A stretch of DNA of 38,628 bases from a virus (taxonomy: Duplodnaviria; Heunggongvirae; Uroviricota; Caudoviricetes): positions 1 to 38,628 of IMG/VR virus record IMGVR_UViG_2711768037_000009; one strand, written 5' to 3'. A model generated the notes under the pieces. The model was given only the letters and a program-made list of their open reading frames with translations. It had not been told where the DNA came from and searched no databases. The translations under genes and the position numbers were made by a program. Below are positions 1-38,628 of the stretch, piece by piece; position 1 is the stretch's first letter; each line of letters starts with the position of its first letter.

Positions 1-259
1 TGAAGGTTCTGACAAACTGCTACGCCTGACGCTGGATCTCGGCGGCGAAAAGCGTAATGTCTTCTCCGGCATTCGTTCTGCCTACCCGGATCCGCAGGCA
101 CTGATTGGTCGTCACACCATTATGGTGGCTAACCTGGCACCACGTAAAATGCGCTTCGGTATCTCTGAAGGCATGGTGATGGCTGCTGGCCCTGGCGGGA
201 AAGATATCTTCCTGTTAAGCCCGGATGTCGGTGCTAAACCTGGCCACCAGGTTAAGTAA
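1..259 (+). CDS. metG: 3' end of methionyl-tRNA synthetase (C-terminal tRNA-binding domain); partial, start lies outside window
   Basis: Open frame from window edge to TAA at 257-259; translation ...[85 protein letters not shown] matches my recollection of the enterobacterial MetG C-terminus. Confidence 0.85.
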
Positions 260-279
260 TTAAGCAACCATTCTTCACA

Positions 280-5684: not shown

Positions 5685-6167
5685 ATGAATTTTATCGCTA
5701 CTGTAAACGCACCCGCACATGGCAATATCGCAGTAACGTTCTCTGACATTGAAAAACGAGTACTTGGTGCATGGCGCGACAATGAGACGGTAGAACTGTC
5801 AGCACAAGAAAAATGCATTATTGCACGTGACATCATTGGTAATCGTCGTTACTCGCGGGTATTTGAGAAAGCGTATGTGGTAAATTCTGGATTCGGAACG
5901 TTCGTCTTTCCGGTGCGCTCCGGGCGATTCTGCCAGTCCAAGCTGATTGAGTTCGCTACGCAGATTTCTGTCTGGATTAAAACTCAATCGTCGTTCAAAT
6001 TTTCCGACGATGAAGCAGTATCGCAGGGGATGCAGATCGCCAACAATGCGATTAAATGCAAAAACATTACGTATGCCGCTGGCGTTGACACATGGAAACT
6101 GTTTTGCGCTAACTTTATGCTGAATGTATACGCAAGCAACCGCATCCACATCCTTGATGGCGTGTAA
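5685..6167 (+). CDS. Hypothetical protein (160 aa)
   Basis: ATG preceded by AAGGA at 8-nt spacing; followed by a terminator. Confidence 0.65.
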   Translation: MNFIATVNAPAHGNIAVTFSDIEKRVLGAWRDNETVELSAQEKCIIARDIIGNRRYSRVFEKAYVVNSGFGTFVFPVRSGRFCQSKLIEFATQISVWIKTQSSFKFSDDEAVSQGMQIANNAIKCKNITYAAGVDTWKLFCANFMLNVYASNRIHILDGV

Positions 6168-6175
6168 CTGAGAAG

Positions 6176-6199
6176 AGGGCCAGAAACGGCCCTTTCTCT
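6176..6199 (+). terminator. Intrinsic terminator
   Basis: AGGGCC-agaaac-GGCCCT hairpin followed by TTCTCT. Confidence 0.55.
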
Positions 6200-6251
6200 A
6201 TAGCCACCAGTTGCCGCAGGGAAATTTTCAGAAACGGCAAGGAACGCATTC

Positions 6252-6560
6252 ATGAGCCGACGGGAAACGGCCAGGATTTTTTCGGGAAACGGCGGCATTC
6301 GCCTTGATGTAGAAAAACATCGGGAAGCTGGTGGAATCCAACCAGCGGCTGTCGGACAGGTGAGCGGGGAAAATTATGATGACTTTCGTCGCCCGAGACA
6401 TCCAGATTTCTTTCGTAGCGTAATCACATACGTGATTAATTGGTGTGATTATGTGAGAAATCACGCGCACATAATACGCGAGCGGATACAGAACAAAACA
6501 AAATGCCGATCCGCGCCGACAATTAAACGCGGATCACATAGCAAGACAAAAAGCCAATGA
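6252..6560 (+). CDS. Doubtful ORF (102 aa, Arg-rich) in a region dense with inverted repeats
   Basis: ATG with AAGGA upstream, but atypical composition and overlapping palindromes. Confidence 0.25.
   Translation: MSRRETARIFSGNGGIRLDVEKHREAGGIQPAAVGQVSGENYDDFRRPRHPDFFRSVITYVINWCDYVRNHAHIIRERIQNKTKCRSAPTIKRGSHSKTKSQ
6420..6540. promoter_or_regulatory. Cluster of inverted repeats (ATCAC/GTGAT words, ATTATGTG-N12-CACATAAT, GATCCGCG-N12-CGCGGATC); candidate operator or origin
   Basis: Several dyad symmetries within ~120 bp in the convergent intergenic region. Confidence 0.3.
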
Positions 6561-6758
6561 TTAACTATGCGCTATAGCGCAATATAACGCGTTTTAAGCG
6601 CATTAATGTGTTAAGTAATGGGTATGTACTGGCAAGGATATAAAAGCGCGTCTATGGCGTTATTTTGGTGCTTGTTTTTATGTTGTTGGAGTGAGTCAAA
6701 GACAATAAAAAACGCGCTAATGATGGCGCGTTATGGTGGGAGTATTGGAAACGAAAAA

Positions 6759-6777
6759 AGCGCCCACTATGGGCGCT
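6759..6777. terminator. Bidirectional intrinsic terminator
   Basis: AGCGCCC-actat-GGGCGCT hairpin flanked by A-run upstream and T-run downstream. Confidence 0.65.
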
Positions 6778-6782
6778 CGATT

Positions 6783-7013
6783 TTATTTGTGTAAACTGAT
6801 TTTAAATCCCATTTCTACAAACGCTTTTAACATTAAAAATATATCAGCGTCGTTCACGTCTGCTTTTTTTCGCTCCTGGTCGCTCAATAAGTCAATTTTG
6901 CGCGTCGTTTCATCTATAAGCTCGACTGCGCGCCCAGCGTAACCAGCGATCCCAGCGATGCGATTAACATAATATTCATTATGGACGTTAACGCCAGCGA
7001 TAAGAACAAACAT
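6783..7013 (-). CDS. Small protein (76 aa), unknown
   Basis: ATG preceded by perfect SD AAGGAG at 8-nt spacing. Confidence 0.6.
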   Translation of the reverse strand: MFVLIAGVNVHNEYYVNRIAGIAGYAGRAVELIDETTRKIDLLSDQERKKADVNDADIFLMLKAFVEMGFKISLHK

Positions 7014-7034
7014 GATTAAGCTCCTTAAAAAAAA

Positions 7035-7238
7035 TTAAATAGAATTTTGAAGTTTTCCGATTAATGCGCTTAAACGTAAGTATTCACGTTTGCGCTTGCA
7101 ATCTCGCTTGCTGTTAAGTAAATCAGAAAACGTAAAATTTAATTGGTCGCGTTGCGCGATCAAATCATCGATTAATTCCAGTTTATAAGCGCGATACTTT
7201 GCGCGATATTCCGCGCGGATCTTGTCATAGCTGACCAT
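7035..7238 (-). CDS. Small basic coiled-coil protein (67 aa), unknown
   Basis: ATG preceded by AAGGAG; 21-nt gap to the downstream gene. Confidence 0.6.
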   Translation of the reverse strand: MVSYDKIRAEYRAKYRAYKLELIDDLIAQRDQLNFTFSDLLNSKRDCKRKREYLRLSALIGKLQNSI

Positions 7239-7254
7239 TTTAAAGCTCCTTTAA

Positions 7255-7273
7255 AGCGCCCATAGTGGGCGCT
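7255..7273. other. Hairpin AGCGCCC-atagt-GGGCGCT, inverted copy of the 6759-6777 hairpin
   Basis: Same stem, loop is the reverse complement; no U-tract. Confidence 0.5.
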
Positions 7274-7285
7274 TGATTCCATTAA

Positions 7286-7936
7286 TTACGCTTTGAAAGC
7301 ATCAGCTAAATAATTGTAGAAATCATTTTTAATGAAGCGATATTGCTGAGTACCAGCTTTTGCACTCCCAGCTCCTTTGACTTTTTCAACAAGTCCAAGA
7401 CGTTCGCAAAGATTGATCAACTGGTTGGCTTGAGTATAGCCAGCGTCCAATTTAATTTCGCACGCTTTTTTAGCTTCATTCATTAAATCGAAAACAGCGC
7501 CATTGGTGAACGTGTCGATCTCGTCGTTAATCATATCGATTAAAGCGAATACACGAGATCCAGACATATCAGCGACGGAATAAACACATTTTCCAGCTTT
7601 AATGGATTTAACCAAATAAACCAGTTTTTCCAGTGAATAACTATTAGTCATAGCGTCACGAAAAAATACTTCTGGCGCTTGTTTGCTTGCTTTAATCGCA
7701 TAGTAGAAAACAGAGCATAATTTTTCGTCTTCTACAGCGTTTACAACGTTGTTGATGAAGTAAGCAAGTTTAGTGGTCGCAGCTTGCATATTTGCTTTGT
7801 CTGCTTTAGTGTGCGTACCATTTTTATAATGTTCGTTATATGTTTGAGTTGCCAGATCTGCTTTTTCGCGCAGCTCGTCGGATACAATGGAAGCAGCTTC
7901 AATGATGGATTTTTTAGAAATGATAATGTTAGCCAT
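7286..7936 (-). CDS. Hypothetical protein (216 aa)
   Basis: ORF track 7286..7945; second ATG has AAGGA at proper spacing. Confidence 0.6.
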   Translation of the reverse strand: MANIIISKKSIIEAASIVSDELREKADLATQTYNEHYKNGTHTKADKANMQAATTKLAYFINNVVNAVEDEKLCSVFYYAIKASKQAPEVFFRDAMTNSYSLEKLVYLVKSIKAGKCVYSVADMSGSRVFALIDMINDEIDTFTNGAVFDLMNEAKKACEIKLDAGYTQANQLINLCERLGLVEKVKGAGSAKAGTQQYRFIKNDFYNYLADAFKA

Positions 7937-8197
7937 GTTGAACATCCTTACGAAAAATTAAAATGAATTTATTTTTTGCTGTCGTTAGCCAGCTCGCTTT
8001 CGACGAGTTCAATTATCGATACGTGAAAAAAGATTGCAAGTGTTTTTTTTAAATTTTTTGCAGGGGTGAAAGTCCTAGAAATAAAAGCGAGATCCTCGAA
8101 GGTGTTCCCTAAATAAATAATAAATTCCGGCTTTTGACCTTATATATTTATACGGGGAGAATTGAATGAGTGTTAAACGAAGGGCATGTAAAATAAT

Positions 8198-32807: not shown

Positions 32808-32823
32808 TCAAGGATTTTTGGAC

Positions 32824-35800
32824 ATGGAACAGTTCAAGAAGAAAAAGTTACCTCTATTAATTGCAGGTTCAGGTGGCAAAAAAAGTAGCAAAAGCTCTAG
32901 TCGCACACCAGTTGAAGCAGACGATACCGTAAATTCTCGTGCTATGGCCTCTATTCTCGATCTTCTTGGTGAAGGCGTAATTGGCGGCCTGGTAAATGGC
33001 GCAAGATCTATTTTTGTCGACGATTTGCCCATAGTAAATGAAGACGGCTCTTCAAACTTTAGCGGAATTTCATGGGATTTTCGAGACGGCTCACAAGACC
33101 AGACACCAATGTCTGGCTTTGATTTCGTCGAAACACCTAAATCGATCAATATCCAACTAAAGAAATCTCATTATGTGACGGTTTCAATAGATAACGATGA
33201 GGCCGATCGCGTTCGAGTCATCATGAAGTTCCCTTCTCTGCGAAGAATAGACCAAAAAACGGGTGATACGAACGGCACTACCGTTGAGTATAAGTTCCAG
33301 ATCTCAAATGGAGATTCGACATTTGTAGATGTGGTTGCAGAAGGTGAAAAAAACGTTGGTATTAAGTTAACAGCGAAGAAAACAGGTGTTTATTATCGTA
33401 GTTATGAGCTGAAGTTACCCAAGCCAGGTCGGGCATACAGTATTCGAGTAGTTCGTATTACTGATGATAACAACGGTCAGTATCTTTATAACGATACATG
33501 GGTGGACTCAATTGGTGAGATCGTTGATACACCGATGAACTACCCAAACTCTGCGTTGGTGGGACTGAAGGTTAATTCTGAGCAGTTTGGCGGCTCTATG
33601 CCTTCTCGTTCCTATCTGGTGCGGGGATTAAAAATTCGCGTACCATCAAACTACAACGAGGCTAGCAACACTTATGATGGCGTATGGGATGGCTCTTTTA
33701 AGCCGTTGTCTTCTTCAAACCCTGCGTGGATTCTCTTCGACTTGCTTACCAATTCTCGATATGGGCTTGGTCAGTATGTGTCGGAATCTATGATTGATCT
33801 CGGCCAACTGTACCAGATCGGTCGATATTGTGACGAAGAGGTTGATGATGGCTTTGGTGGTAAAGAGAAACGCTTTGCAATCAATACGCAGATCACCAGT
33901 CGACAAGACGCATACCGATTAATTCAGGATATTGCCGGTGCATTCCGCGGCATGGTGTTTTGGGCTGGTGGCATGGTTAATATCATGCAGGATAGCCCGT
34001 CAGATCCGGTAATGATGTTTACTAACTCCAACGTCAAAGATGGATTGTTTACATATAAGGGGTCTGCGCGTAAAGATCGCCCATCCGTTGCGCTCGTAAC
34101 CTACAACAACAAGGAGGACGGTTATAAGCAAAACATCGAGTATGTTGAAGATCAGGACGCAATGCGCCGTTATGGTGAGCGTAAAACAGAAGTCGTAGCA
34201 TTTGGATGTACGAGCCGAGGCCAGGCTCACCGAGTTGGTTTGTGGCTGTTGTATACCGCCAGAATGGAGTCGGATGTAATTACATTTACTGCTGGCTTAG
34301 ACGCGTCATTTCTGATGCCTGGTGAAACCGTTCTGATTCAGAACAAATATCGTGCAGGCAAACGTAACTCCGGTCGAATTGTGGAGTTTACCAAAAATAG
34401 CATCACTCTCGATGCGCCTGTGTCGTTAGCTAAAAGCGGCAGCTTTATTCGGATATTGAATCAGAAAGGCAAAATCGTTGAACGCGATGTTCTTGAAACT
34501 GGCGAAAACATAACAAAGGTTACGTTTTCAAAAGCCCTGTCGTCGGCGGAAACGCCAGTTTTGAACGGTGTCTGGACAATTACAGAACCAGATCTCGAAC
34601 CTATGCGCGTTCGCATCGTTAACATCGCGCAGGGGGAAACGCCGGGTAGCTTTGACATCACCGCTGTTGAGAACAATCCGTCTAAATATGAGGCGATCGA
34701 CAATGGTGCAACGCTTATCCCGCAAAATACGACGGTATTGGACCCGACTTACTCCAAGCCGTCTAATTTGCAAATCACCGAAGGGACTTATCTCTCAAGC
34801 CCTGGCAATCTGTCAGTAAAACTGACTGCAACATGGGAAGGGAAATCTCCAGTGTATTGGATCAGTTGGCGACGTTCTGATGAAAACAATGTATCGAACT
34901 GGCAATCGGCGCGTGTAACCGAAGAGCAATACGAAATCGTTAATGTTGCAGAGAATGGACGTTACGACTTCCAGTTGTATGCGGTTTCATTCAACGGTAA
35001 AAAAACAGAGATTATCAGTACCGTTTATCAGGTGCTGGGTACAATGACGCCGCCTGATGCGCCCATGTCATTAACGGCAGTTGGGGACTATCGTAATGTG
35101 ATACTGAATTGGGTCAATCCAGATTCGGTAGACCTTGATCACATTAATGTTTACGCATCCCAGACCAACAATCTGGATACAGCGAAACTGATCGCAGAGT
35201 CAGCGAGTACAACCTTTACACATGCTGGTCTTGGTGATAACGAAACTTGGTATTACTGGGTTAGATCAGCAAATAAGCGTGGCATGTTGAGTCGTCCAAA
35301 CTCAAATCTTGGTACAGAGGCCACAACGCGAGATGTTCTTTCATTTTTAGCCAATAAAATTACCTCGTCAGAACTTGGCCAGGCTTTAAATGAGGAAATT
35401 GACAGTAAGGCTTCTCAACAAGCTGTTGATGAAATCAATAATCATATCGTTCAGAGCGTTGAATCTCTGGAAGGTGAAATTTCCGCATTAAATAAGGAGC
35501 TAATGAGTAGTATCGATGAGTTTAAAACATCGTTTACTGAACGCAGCGATACACTGGAGAATGCGCAAAGCGAGCTTAGGACGGAAGTTTCTAGCACTCG
35601 GGAAAAAGTAGATGATGCATTACAACAGGTTGAAAATTCAAATGCAGCACTTATTGAACTACGCAATACAGTATCAGAACAAGGTGATTCTGTTGCAGGT
35701 GTCGTAGAAGCAGCAAATGCGGCACTTGAAAATGCATCATCTTTAATTGCCGAAGAGCGTGAAGCTCGTGCACAAGCAGAACTGGCGAATGCTAAAAAGA

Positions 35801-37431
35801 TAGAAACGATAAAATCATCGGTTGATGAAAGTGTTGCGGCTGTAGAAGAAATGCAGAGAACAGTTGCTGAGGTAGGAAGAGTAAGTTCAGAAATCACAAC
35901 TAATCTTGAAGCAATTTCTAAGACAAATATCGATCTTGCGTTGCGGCAGGACGAAGATCAGCACAGACAGCTGGTAAATAACGCGAAAATTGCAACGACT
36001 CAAAAGATTCTTGTCGATGATGTGTCCGCAATGGCATCTAAGGTTGAAGAGATACGAGCCGAGATTGGTGACAACATTCGAGCATCTATTCTCGAAGAAA
36101 CGACAGCAAGAACCGACGCTGACAATGCGTTAGCCAGTAGCATGACACAATTACAGAGTAAATTTGAAAATGATATTAGTGCTGCTATAAGGTCAGAACA
36201 ATCCACTAGGGCATCAGCGAATGAAGCGCTTTCAACTCAAATTACTCAACTGGAATCTAAAGTCAATACAGATCTTTCCACTGCAATTAGAGAAGAGCGA
36301 CAAACAAGAGTCACTCAAAATGAAGCGTTATCAAGACAAATCAATCAATTGCAGGTAAAAATGGATGATGACATATCCGCTGCTATTAATGAGGAAAGAG
36401 AAGCCAGAGCATCAGGCGATAGTGCGCTATCAAGAGAAGTTAGTAGTTTAAAAACAAAAACAGGTAAAGACATTGCAGCGGCAGTAGCAGTTGAAACCAA
36501 AGCAAGAATTGACGCTAATGATGCATTATCCAGACAAATATCCTCGCTTACTACAAGGGCCAATGAGCTTGAGTCCTCGATAGAGCGAGAATCGACATCT
36601 CGTACAAGTCAGGATTCTGCCATTGCAAAAGACTTGACGAGTTTTAAAACAAAAACTGCTAAGGATATAAGTGCAGCTGTTGCGGTAGAAACCCAGGCAA
36701 GAACTGACGCTGATACCGCATTGACGTCGCAGATTAACTCACTAAAGACGCAAACTGGTAAAGATATAAAGGCTGCTGTGGCAGAAGAGACAAAAGCAAG
36801 AACTGATGCTGATGCGGCGCTTGCGACAAGAGTAACTAATCTCCAGTCGCAAACAACAAATGATATCAATGCAGCGATTACGTCAGAGTCAAAGGCCAGA
36901 ACAAGTGCAGACAACGCTCTAGGAAAACGAATTGATACACTGAAAGCGTCTGTAGATGGAAATGTTGCCGTTATTCAACAGCAGGCTTCTGCTATAGCTG
37001 ACGCAAATAGAAAAGTATCCACCTCGTACACATTGAAGATGGAAACTTCAACGAGTGGAGGGCAGAAGTATGTAGCGGGCATTGCGCTTGGTATTGATAC
37101 AGCGGGGCTTTCTCAGTTTTTGGTGCGGGCAGATCGATTTGGTTTGGTCAACAATGTTAATGGGAAGATCACAACGCCATTTGTTATCGAAAACAGCATT
37201 GCATATATGAACGGTGCTTATATCAAAGATGGCACTATCACAAACGCAAAGGTAGGTGACTTGCAATCAACAAACTTCGTAAGCGGACGAGCCGGATGGA
37301 GATTTGGCAAAAACGGAACGCTTGAGATTAACGGTAACAGTGGCGGAAATGGGAGATTAGTTATCAATGGGCAGAGGATCGACGTTTACGATGACAATAA
37401 TGTACTCCGGGTAAGAATTGGTCGGCTTTGA
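32824..37431 (+). CDS. Tail tip / host-specificity protein, lambda gpJ-like (~1535 aa) with C-terminal tandem-repeat coiled-coil region
   Basis: ORF track 32818..37431; ATG at 32824 after AAGGA; N-terminal half shares gpJ landmarks (RGLKIRVPSNY...WDGSFKP...PAWILFDLLTNSRYGLG...YCDE). Confidence 0.85.
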   Translation: MEQFKKKKLPLLIAGSGGKKSSKSSSRTPVEADDTVNSRAMASILDLLGEGVIGGLVNGARSIFVDDLPIVNEDGSSNFSGISWDFRDGSQDQTPMSGFDFVETPKSINIQLKKSHYVTVSIDNDEADRVRVIMKFPSLRRIDQKTGDTNGTTVEYKFQISNGDSTFVDVVAEGEKNVGIKLTAKKTGVYYRSYELKLPKPGRAYSIRVVRITDDNNGQYLYNDTWVDSIGEIVDTPMNYPNSALVGLKVNSEQFGGSMPSRSYLVRGLKIRVPSNYNEASNTYDGVWDGSFKPLSSSNPAWILFDLLTNSRYGLGQYVSESMIDLGQLYQIGRYCDEEVDDGFGGKEKRFAINTQITSRQDAYRLIQDIAGAFRGMVFWAGGMVNIMQDSPSDPVMMFTNSNVKDGLFTYKGSARKDRPSVALVTYNNKEDGYKQNIEYVEDQDAMRRYGERKTEVVAFGCTSRGQAHRVGLWLLYTARMESDVITFTAGLDASFLMPGETVLIQNKYRAGKRNSGRIVEFTKNSITLDAPVSLAKSGSFIRILNQKGKIVERDVLETGENITKVTFSKALSSAETPVLNGVWTITEPDLEPMRVRIVNIAQGETPGSFDITAVENNPSKYEAIDNGATLIPQNTTVLDPTYSKPSNLQITEGTYLSSPGNLSVKLTATWEGKSPVYWISWRRSDENNVSNWQSARVTEEQYEIVNVAENGRYDFQLYAVSFNGKKTEIISTVYQVLGTMTPPDAPMSLTAVGDYRNVILNWVNPDSVDLDHINVYASQTNNLDTAKLIAESASTTFTHAGLGDNETWYYWVRSANKRGMLSRPNSNLGTEATTRDVLSFLANKITSSELGQALNEEIDSKASQQAVDEINNHIVQSVESLEGEISALNKELMSSIDEFKTSFTERSDTLENAQSELRTEVSSTREKVDDALQQVENSNAALIELRNTVSEQGDSVAGVVEAANAALENASSLIAEEREARAQAELANAKKIETIKSSVDESVAAVEEMQRTVAEVGRVSSEITTNLEAISKTNIDLALRQDEDQHRQLVNNAKIATTQKILVDDVSAMASKVEEIRAEIGDNIRASILEETTARTDADNALASSMTQLQSKFENDISAAIRSEQSTRASANEALSTQITQLESKVNTDLSTAIREERQTRVTQNEALSRQINQLQVKMDDDISAAINEEREARASGDSALSREVSSLKTKTGKDIAAAVAVETKARIDANDALSRQISSLTTRANELESSIERESTSRTSQDSAIAKDLTSFKTKTAKDISAAVAVETQARTDADTALTSQINSLKTQTGKDIKAAVAEETKARTDADAALATRVTNLQSQTTNDINAAITSESKARTSADNALGKRIDTLKASVDGNVAVIQQQASAIADANRKVSTSYTLKMETSTSGGQKYVAGIALGIDTAGLSQFLVRADRFGLVNNVNGKITTPFVIENSIAYMNGAYIKDGTITNAKVGDLQSTNFVSGRAGWRFGKNGTLEINGNSGGNGRLVINGQRIDVYDDNNVLRVRIGRL
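36050..36960 (+). repeat. Tandem ~99-bp coding repeats (33-residue units, ~8-9 copies) inside the J-like gene
   Basis: Units such as DISAAIRSEQSTRASANEALSTQITQLESKVNT and DISAAVAVETQARTDADTALTSQINSLKTQTGK; coordinates approximate. Confidence 0.7.
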
Positions 37432-37525
37432 TTATGGAAAAAAATATTTTCATCGATAATAATAAGTAGCTACATACTTAACTGTGGGCGAGGATAGCCC
37501 ACCTTATTAAAGGAGCAGATTCAAC

Positions 37526-38628
37526 ATGTGGTACAGGGAAGGTACTATCACATTTACACAAGGCAGCAATACTCTGGTTGGTGCTGGGACAGCATGGAAC
37601 GTTACGGCCAATGGTGTGTTGCCTGGCATGATTGTCGTCGCACCTGATAATAAATTGTATGAAATTAAAAGCGTAACAAATGACACAACCTTAACGTTGG
37701 TTGAAAACTATACTGGTGAAACGCAAAGTAATATCCCATGTAGGATCATAACTACATACGAAGGAGATTTGACTCAGTTTAGTGCTCGATTTACTGCGCT
37801 TTTATCGAGAATGGCCGGTGATGCTAAAACTGTGCGTAATTGGCTAACGGCTGTAGATGAAATAACACTTGAGCGTGAAGATGGTACAAGTATTAATGTT
37901 AAACCTCTTGCGAAGATTATTGATGAGCATAATAAGCACGTAGAATGGTACGAAAATAATACGAATGTAATCGATGAAGCCAACACCAGAGTAAAGCAAG
38001 CTGCGGCAAGTGCTGCGGCAAGTGAAGAACTTGCCGCAGAGATTCTATTGCGAGCAGAGAATGCGACAACACGAGCAGAAGAGGCTGTATCAAGAGCTGC
38101 GACAGCATACGGGCCACAGGGACCAAAGGGCGATCGAGGAGAGAAAGGCGATAAAGGCGAGCAGGGGATTCAGGGCAAGACTGGTCCACAAGGGCCACGT
38201 GGTCTTCAGGGGGATACTGGTCCTGTTGGACCTCGTGGAGTTCCAGGACCTCAAGGGGAAATAGGCCCTCGTGGAGAAACTGGACCAAGAGGAGAAAAAG
38301 GTGATCCTGGTGGTCCACAGGGACCAAAGGGTGACACAGGACCAAGAGGGGAACAAGGACCTCAAGGCCCAAGAGGAGCTACTGGAGAGAGGGGACCACA
38401 GGGTTCCCGAGGACCGGCAGGTAGCGCCGGTCCAAAAGGGGAAAAAGGCGATCCAGGATCACAGGGTCCGAAAGGTGAAACGGGAGCAACAGGCCCAGCT
38501 GGTCCGCGGGGAGCGCAGGGACCGAAAGGGGAGAAAGGAGACCCCGGTCCCAGAGGTGAGCGTGGAGAAACCGGGCCGATGGGGCCAAAGGGCGAGAGAG
38601 GCGAGAGAGGCGAGAGAGGGGCGCAGGG
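37526..38628 (+). CDS. Tail fibre protein with collagen-like Gly-X-Y repeats; 3' end beyond window
   Basis: AAGGAG SD 10 nt upstream of ATG; open to the window edge; uninterrupted Gly-X-Y triplets from ~38100 (GPQGPKGDRGEKGDKGEQG...). Confidence 0.75.
   Translation, partial: MWYREGTITFTQGSNTLVGAGTAWNVTANGVLPGMIVVAPDNKLYEIKSVTNDTTLTLVENYTGETQSNIPCRIITTYEGDLTQFSARFTALLSRMAGDAKTVRNWLTAVDEITLEREDGTSINVKPLAKIIDEHNKHVEWYENNTNVIDEANTRVKQAAASAAASEELAAEILLRAENATTRAEEAVSRAATAYGPQGPKGDRGEKGDKGEQGIQGKTGPQGPRGLQGDTGPVGPRGVPGPQGEIGPRGETGPRGEKGDPGGPQGPKGDTGPRGEQGPQGPRGATGERGPQGSRGPAGSAGPKGEKGDPGSQGPKGETGATGPAGPRGAQGPKGEKGDPGPRGERGETGPMGPKGERGERGERGAQ

Follow-up and report, generated by a model that had tools for sequence, protein, structure and literature searches.

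A probable chimeric side tail fibre gene with a collagen-like stalk in an SSU5-like phage-plasmid of Escherichia coli

The window analysed here is the whole of a 38,628-nt stretch of viral DNA (IMG/VR record IMGVR_UViG_2711768037_000009, positions 1 to 38,628). The gene that runs off its end very probably encodes the side tail fibre of a temperate, SSU5-like E. coli phage-plasmid, with its 5′ three-fifths inside the window; the fibre would be chimeric, homotrimeric, collagen-stalked and variable in length. The feature is of a known and experimentally characterised kind, the collagen-like prophage side tail fibre. The gene and its surroundings are as follows.

32818 to 37431, + strand: J/TipJ tail-tip (central fibre) gene, 1537 aa, with Pfam FNIII-A_GpJ, Phage-tail_3 and Phage_Tail_Tip.
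37510 to 37515, + strand: Shine-Dalgarno sequence AAGGAG, with the start codon 10 nt downstream, from direct reading of the sequence.
37526 to 38628, + strand: side tail fibre gene, 5′ 1103 nt (367 codons), an open frame truncated by the window end.

From the ATG at 37526 to the last base of the window the frame contains 367 codons and no stop, and the remaining five frames of the same stretch have 6 to 32 stops each. The intergenic region 37432-37525 gave weak promoter-consensus matches only, and no terminator was found in it. Upstream of the gene are those for a 1530-aa tape-measure protein and the 1537-aa J/TipJ tail-tip protein. The best PDB match of J was the F2-pyocin central fibre (25vf_A, E = 6.9e-154), and lambda J was matched at 1.6e-124. 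Residues ~841-1400 of J (~560 aa) are Pro-free and repeat-rich by composition and repeats, and look like a long helical shaft. A preliminary description had called the truncated gene a tail fibre gene, and this was borne out by its place directly after J/TipJ, by matches of its N-terminus to PHROG tail-fibre families (E ~ 1e-88) and by the 69-93% identity of its first ~150 aa to annotated (side) tail fibres of Salmonella phage SSU5 and Escherichia phages Cyrano, PhiR41_1 and CMS-2020a.

Positions 1-25000 of the window aligned with the 108.5-kb circular plasmid pOkiPb01698_2 from a bovine E. coli in one collinear alignment at 98.8% identity, and the fibre region also matched the DNA of SSU5, Cyrano, PhiR41_1 and CMS-2020a. 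This collinearity and these matches identify the window, at the level of sequence, as part of an SSU5-like E. coli phage-plasmid. The SSU5/pHCM2-like phage-plasmids, among them a plasmid of E. coli O104:H4 2009EL-2050, have the same type of genome and the same gene position. Their fibres, however, typically measure 900-1070 aa and lack collagen; they combine a long coil rich in Ala and Ser with PF03406 repeats and a PF07484 or PF13884 end. The typical SSU5-family distal part is missing here and a collagen module stands in its place, a version that was found on only two of the ~170 matched E. coli plasmids.

The part of the protein that precedes the collagen-like tract had been put at about 190 aa; we counted 195 aa, in which the following segments were recognised.

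37526 to 37750, + strand: aa 1-75, small beta domain, putative OB-like virion-attachment domain (profile match; AF2).
37526 to 37975, + strand: aa 1-150, segment common to the fibres of SSU5-like phage-plasmids (identity to the SSU5-type fibre P0080).
37907 to 38110, + strand: aa 128-195, long alpha-helix, a PCoil-like and presumably trimeric coiled coil (AF2 pLDDT about 64-84).

An hmmsearch with a profile of SSU5-family N-termini found the F2-pyocin side fibre 25ve_A (residues 3-73, E = 1.2e-6) and 23gd_B (E = 5e-6). When the N-terminal domain was searched as a single sequence, the OB domain of PyoF13 was matched at E = 7e-4. The AF2 monomer of the N-terminus, calculated from a shallow alignment of 21 sequences, had a pLDDT of 70, with beta strands in aa 1-75 (about 60-87 per 10-residue block) and helices at 82-108, 128-144 and 146-194. 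Foldseek with this model gave no match in the PDB below E = 1e-3, and the best matches were weak ones to tailspike N-termini and generic beta-barrels. Some of them, such as that to the N-terminal domain of the phi92 endosialidase (E = 4e-3), might suggest that the gene encodes a tailspike, or a central or terminal fibre, instead of a side fibre. We rejected this reading as highly improbable: the role of central fibre is already taken by J, which has its own Phage_Tail_Tip C-terminal domain, an enzymatic beta-helix domain of the tailspike kind is absent, and the N-terminus matches the side fibre of the F2 pyocin.

A side fibre is also what the comparison with PyoF13, the side fibre of a Pseudomonas F2-type pyocin (PDB 25VE/25VJ; PMC13455828), suggests. 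The N-terminal ~75 aa of PyoF13 are homologous to the fibre, its partner central fibre is the best PDB match of J, and its RBD resembles R-pyocin fibres, as does the receptor-binding tip in the relatives of the window gene. PyoF13 differs in being a protein of 363 aa with stem, HTH and tower and in having no collagen tract. Three PyoF13 trimers dock on the helical shaft of the central fibre in the F2 pyocin, through their OB domains and stem helices (PMC13455828), and by analogy the helical shaft of J might, speculatively, be the docking site of the fibre described here.

The anchor and coil are followed by the collagen-like tract, which has the following parts in the window.

38111 to 38628, + strand: collagen-like (Gly-X-Y) tract, 172 aa seen (Gly periodicity; Pfam Collagen).
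38300 to 38323, + strand: register break GEK-GDP-G-GPQ-GPK, with one additional residue, aa 259-266, after 22-23 triplets.

The tract starts at aa 196 (nt 38111) and has 57 triplets up to the window end, arranged as 23 triplets, one extra residue and 34 triplets. The window protein scored 99.7 bits (E = 7.6e-29) with Pfam Collagen (PF01391), whose cut-off is 27.2, and a chance origin of the Gly-X-Y tract is therefore excluded. The preliminary description had the tract as uninterrupted for at least 170 residues. The length stood, at 172 aa, but the continuity did not, given the one-residue break at aa 259-266. This break, GDPGGPQG (aa 259), is present in the window and in most relatives with longer tracts, and the sequence GPQ-GPK-GD at aa 196 and aa 263 starts both segments of the tract. 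Pro occupies 40% and Asp/Glu 39% of X positions, while Arg/Lys occupy 46%, Gln 21% and Thr 14% of Y positions. The GC content is 62% in the collagen tract versus 43% in the N-terminal part. A perfect threefold repeat reported at the very end was recovered with Tandem Repeats Finder (TRF) as 3.2 copies of GGCGAGAGA with 100% identity at 38591-38619. The tract is almost finished there: the closest full-length relative adds only GPA-GPA-GKS, so the window contains nearly the whole tract, which in that relative ends three triplets past the window stop.

The tract closely resembles those of the E. coli prophage collagen-like proteins EPclA-D described by Ghosh et al. 2012 (PLoS One 7:e37872; PMC3368898), in which a PfN domain is followed by PCoil, by Col and lastly by a C-terminal domain. 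EPclA proved to be a trimer, with a triple helix by CD and a dumbbell shape by EM (PMC3368898). EPcl collagen favours Pro or Asp/Glu in the X position and Arg/Lys/Gln/Thr in the Y position, it has a recurrent GP(Q/P)-GPK-G(D/E) motif and lengths that differ by multiples of three residues, and the long tracts have a single GxPGGPxG interruption (PMC3368898). The X and Y preferences, the motif and the interruption are all present in the window tract. A predicted coil followed by a collagen domain, a gene that adjoins J and, in relatives, a globular C-terminal domain are further points of likeness. The post-collagen part of the relatives is near-identical in protein to that of PfN-bearing lambdoid members, with which the terminal 702 nt also agree in DNA at an identity of at least 99%. 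Residues 164-195 are 47-60% identical to the segment just before the collagen domain in lambdoid EPcl-type fibres; the predicted coil (~45-65 aa) is shorter than the PCoil of EPcl proteins, 88-116 aa. From the homology to the experimentally studied EPclA, we infer that the chains form a homotrimer and a collagen triple helix.

The fibre differs from the EPcl proteins in other respects as well. The PfN domain (PF08400), which heads all EPcl architectures, is replaced by the SSU5-family anchor, and Pfam found PF08400 in neither the window protein nor the full-length relative; the fibre would be EPcl-like in its working but is not a canonical EPcl member. The C-terminus of the relatives is Mu-S-like plus gp53-like_C and not the PfC (PF06820) of EPclA/B, which places them closer to the rarer EPclC/D types. 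Finally, the gene is carried by a phage-plasmid, whereas EPcl genes are carried by integrated lambdoid prophages. Short Gly-X-Y runs also serve as trimeric stalks in the PRD1 spike P5 and in the streptococcal phage hyaluronidase HylP, but these tracts are far shorter than that of the fibre and the flanking domains are unrelated.

The rest of the gene could be followed in relatives. Near-full-length matches to the fibre gene were sought among 5426 complete E. coli genomes and were found in two. One is on pOkiPb01698_2 (L001), 98.7% identical over the fibre gene, with an intact product of 612 aa (WP_197732694.1; P0034). The other is on NZ_CP027369.1 (L002), a plasmid of strain 2014C-3307, 97.3% identical, where the gene is annotated as a pseudogene with a frameshift. 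Up to aa ~350 the window protein and P0034 do not differ, and P0034 represents 43 member sequences. It had been stated that the receptor-binding C-terminus lies outside the window, and by homology this agrees with the 245 further codons of the 612-aa relative. That protein has the Pfam architecture Collagen + Gp53-like_C, and its 233 C-terminal residues consist of a Mu-S-like domain followed by a gp53/R-pyocin-like tip. Residues 379-518 matched the Mu fibre S (PDB 8ju3) at E = 1.3e-14, and P2 H and P7 S were also homologous. The tip matched Gp53-like_C (PF21882) at E = 1.9e-11, and residues 515-604 matched the R1 pyocin fibre 6cxb at E = 6.7e-8, with matches to R2 pyocin fibre tips as well. 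Two small ORFs downstream in the relative belong to PHROG 188 and 136 (tail-fibre assembly), with DUF4376 and, weakly, Caudo_TAP. We infer a similar content for the distal 40% of the window's own gene, beyond 38628.

Weak PDB matches of the full-length relative were to BclA (1wck) and to a hyaluronoglucosaminidase (6x3m). Collagen-like tracts are known in bacterial surface proteins, and with BclA among the weak matches the product might be taken for a surface adhesin of lysogenic conversion, comparable to Scl of streptococci or BclA of Bacillus, rather than for a part of the virion. This is almost certainly wrong, and we rejected it. The protein starts with MWYREGTITF, followed by the beta domain, and has no signal-peptide-like N-terminus; the gene lies within a tail operon, directly after J, with tail-fibre chaperone genes downstream; and homology links the N-terminus of the protein to side fibres of phages and pyocins and the C-terminus to fibres of Mu, P2 and pyocins.

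The frameshifted annotation of the NZ_CP027369.1 copy, which has two 1-nt deletions, and the rarity of the chimera (2 of the 5426 complete E. coli genomes) might point to a gene in decay, now a pseudogene or a non-functional chimera. The window copy, however, has no stop or frameshift across its 367 codons, the copy on pOkiPb01698_2 and P0034, with its 43 member sequences, are intact at 612 aa, and the indels between alleles are all multiples of 3. Moreover, the two frameshifts are in homopolymer runs (G5, C3), as is typical of sequencing errors. Decay was thus rejected as very unlikely.

The gene is a mosaic, and the features that bear on its origin are listed below.

37973 to 38023, + strand: mosaic junction, aa ~150-166, in an Ala/Ser-rich helix (crossing of the identity profiles to SSU5-type and lambdoid-type fibres).
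38000 to 38024, + strand: 12-nt tandem repeat GCTGCGGCAAGT, 2.1 copies, overlapping the mosaic junction (TRF).
38013 to 38039: 11-bp hairpin, overlapping the mosaic junction.
38427 to 38586, + strand: 160 nt with 94-96% identity to fibre genes of chromosomal lambdoid/Stx prophages, in their second collagen domain.
38580 to 38628, + strand: start of a module common to lambdoid prophage fibres, including the 3.2 copies of the 9-nt terminal unit (GER-GER-GER).

Compared with the SSU5-type fibre P0080 in blocks of 15 aa, the window protein was 93-100% identical, apart from blocks of 73% and 87% at aa 121-150, and identity fell below 35% after aa 166. The tblastn and megablast matches to SSU5-type fibres ended at aa ~150-155. 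Homology to P0080 and P0087 stopped at aa ~150-166, and homology to PfN-bearing lambdoid prophage fibres began at aa 164. At the relative's locus, the 1.7 kb from the last dozen triplets through both chaperone genes shared 98.9% identity with a lambdoid prophage that the relative's own host strain carries in its chromosome. The C-terminal 702 nt of the relative were found at an identity of at least 99% at 64 chromosomal places (45 genomes) but on only two plasmids. The identity profiles and the prophage-identical distal DNA thus point to a fusion, with an SSU5 anchor joined to a module of lambdoid type that comprises collagen, tip and chaperones, and judged from these alignments the gene is a chimera, SSU5-type in its anchor and lambdoid EPcl-type distal to about aa 164. 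By the same alignments the collagen DNA is itself a patchwork. We searched the literature for collagen-like fibres encoded by phage-plasmids and found nothing relevant. The chimera of SSU5 anchor and lambdoid EPcl module on a phage-plasmid, with clean evidence of a very recent exchange with resident prophages, appears mildly new.

Repeats of the tract at which its length may change are given here.

38129 to 38160, + strand: 9-nt tandem array (TRF).
38147 to 38161, + strand: GGCGATAAAGGCGAG, 15 nt, within the 9-nt array; the window has no second copy of it.
38316 to 38361, + strand: 18-nt tandem array, 2.5 copies, 82% matches (TRF).

Among alleles with the SSU5-type N-terminus, the tract has 61 triplets in P0034, 59 in P0038 and 10 in P0037, this last a kind of shortening that short-read collapse could mimic. 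It has 64 in NZ_CP027369.1 once the two homopolymer frameshifts are corrected, and at least 57 in the window, or 60 if the tract ends as in pOkiPb01698_2. In lambdoid partners that share the C-terminus, the tract has 22, 31, 42, 45, 64, 66 and 68 triplets.

All indels between close relatives map to TRF arrays or to direct repeats of 6-15 nt. The largest is found between P0034 and P0037: two copies of GGCGATAAAGGCGAG in pOkiPb01698_2 lie 462 nt (154 aa) apart, exactly the gap between 612 and 458 aa. NZ_CP027369.1 has one additional perfect 18-nt unit, GGACCAAAGGGTGACACA, encoding GPKGDT, in the array at 38316-38361. Compared with pOkiPb01698_2, the window is without 18 nt (GPQGAT) between two GGGGCC repeats. 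The terminal 9-nt units number two in pOkiPb01698_2, three in NZ_CP027369.1 and three in the window (GER-GER-GER), and at this site the two relatives read GDK-GER and GDK-GDK-GER, respectively. The earlier proposal that the tract varies in length by repeat slippage, which was to be checked by comparing relatives, is in line with the series of 10, 59, 61 and 64 triplets with the same flanks, in which each indel falls at a tandem or direct repeat. These alignments support slippage or short-repeat recombination behind the changes in tract length. The length series from 10 to 64 triplets is likewise mildly new.

The last ~45 nt of the window differ from both close relatives and need separate consideration. 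The host of the closest relative has the shared module twice, on the plasmid and in a prophage, and the window stops 45-75 nt inside this module. At the opposite end the window has 260 nt that resemble metG, with 92-94% identity to the metG genes of the sampled chromosomes. The window stop is probably an assembly break in a repeat, and most likely the window represents a complete contig of a short-read assembly, with a repeat at either end. A search with the N-terminus only gave nearly all truncated, 'partial' proteins, many of them on contigs of 34-39 kb. Exact scans of genome, viral and metagenome contigs with the terminal 44-50-mer gave no match, and the exact 367-aa partial product was absent from the protein collection searched.

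The last ~45 nt, including the three terminal units, might accordingly be an artefact or chimera of the contig end, made where a short-read assembler passed from unique plasmid DNA into the fibre module that resident lambdoid prophages also carry. The window stops inside a block at 98.9% identity on plasmid and chromosome in the host of the closest relative, its other end is in a metG-like repeat, homologues on contigs of similar size are often 'partial', and the terminal allele is matched nowhere else. The terminal sequence is, however, in frame and keeps a proper Gly-X-Y pattern; the loss of 18 nt between GGGGCC repeats together with three 9-nt units has the pattern of genuine slippage; and the relatives differ from each other at exactly the same spot. 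We consider an artefact unlikely, and it would leave the gene call unaffected. The terminal GER allele, with its three units, may instead be a genuine product of recent slippage.

Taken together, the fibre could be built and work as follows. The N-terminal OB-like beta domain and helices, common to SSU5-family fibres, would anchor the fibre at the tail tip, and the short Ala-rich coiled coil would nucleate trimerisation. The stalk, thin and semi-rigid, would be a collagen-like triple helix that has about 60 triplets, measures about 50 nm and contains one register break. Beyond the window, the Mu-S/P2-H-like domain and the gp53/R-pyocin-like tip would bind the receptor, speculatively LPS, and the products of the downstream chaperone genes would assist in folding of the fibre. 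The lambdoid EPcl-type module would have been gained by recombination in the low-complexity DNA of coil and collagen, and slippage or recombination between short direct repeats would change stalk length, in units of 9 or 18 nt and at times by hundreds of nt.

With a rise of collagen of about 0.29 nm per residue (PMC3368898), the stalk would span about 9 nm at 10 triplets and about 50-53 nm in the long alleles, including that of the window. It is conceivable, if rather doubtful, that the stalk acts as a fast-evolving 'length dial', in which repeats, together with swaps of the distal fibre and chaperones with prophages, retune host range in the manner of a contingency locus. If this were true, the reach of the fibre would change at high frequency, from ~9 nm to >50 nm, inside a polylysogen, and could be tuned, for example, to the thickness of O-antigen or capsule.

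The importance of the gene is modest. It offers a clear and datable case of a phage-plasmid that would have acquired a distal fibre, a collagen stalk and chaperones from co-resident lambdoid prophages, including those of the Stx type, and it is relevant to the way in which host range and gene flow connect integrated phages with plasmid-like ones in pathogenic E. coli. Alleles with identical flanks and tracts that range from 10 to 64 triplets occur naturally and would be handy for relating stalk length to adsorption. The structure of repeats and shared modules would also account for the frequent contig breaks at the fibre gene and for the common 'partial' annotation. Near-identical proteins at NCBI are already named 'collagen-like protein' or 'gp53-like domain-containing protein'.

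The side tail fibre ORF of the SSU5-like phage-plasmid (window 37526-38628, + strand, cut by the window end) is mosaic. As listed below, the boundary between SSU5-type and lambdoid-type sequence within this ORF coincides exactly with a short tandem repeat and a hairpin.

Within 38000-38039: 12-nt tandem repeat GCTGCGGCAAGT (x2.1), which codes for AAASAAAS
Within 38000-38039: hairpin with an 11-bp stem, CTGCGGCAAGT…ACTTGCCGCAG

The DUF4376 tail-fibre-assembly-like protein was compared between the pOkiPb01698_2 plasmid (L001, 8199-8864) and a lambdoid prophage (L003, 4488-5159). The two are 90% identical over their full length despite the different C-terminal tips of the plasmid and prophage fibres, and therefore the chaperone does not follow the tip domain, contrary to expectation. 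A Hok/Gef-family toxin gene is located between the J tail-tip gene and the fibre gene in the lambdoid prophages that have the distal fibre module in common with the phage-plasmid (L003, 2430-2570; L004, 3715-3855); in the phage-plasmid this gap consists only of a 94-nt spacer (window 37432-37525).

In the second close relative (L002, plasmid NZ_CP027369.1), the fibre gene (6127-7990) is annotated as a frameshifted pseudogene. It contains two 1-nt deletions, one in a G5 run and one in a C3 run, equivalent to window positions 38209-38213 and 38406-38408. Apart from these deletions, the three pieces of the reading frame are all intact, which suggests homopolymer sequencing errors rather than decay of the gene.

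The majority of the database homologues of the fibre N-terminus (P0001-P0033) are truncated 'partial' proteins which end within the Ala/Ser-rich coil, and several of these are located on contigs of 34-39 kb. The fibre gene is a systematic break site in short-read assemblies of SSU5-like plasmids. At the other end, window 1-260 shares 92-94% identity with the metG gene (methionine--tRNA ligase) of the chromosome. A match was obtained in all 5426 complete E. coli genomes, and the sampled chromosomal hits corresponded to this metG-like segment. The segment also belongs to the phage-plasmid, since window 1-25000 and pOkiPb01698_2 are collinear; with it at the window start, host-genome repeats therefore lie at both window ends.

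J (window 32818-37431, + strand) is 1537 aa long versus 1132 aa in lambda and contains the following segment:

35338-37017 (J residues ~841-1400): Pro-free, Gly-poor segment of ~560 aa with ~30-aa repeats, DISAAxxxExxARxxADxALxxQIxxL

These residues presumably form a very long alpha-helical shaft. Among PDB entries, J matched the central fibre of the F2 pyocin best (25vf_A, E = 6.9e-154), ahead of lambda J.
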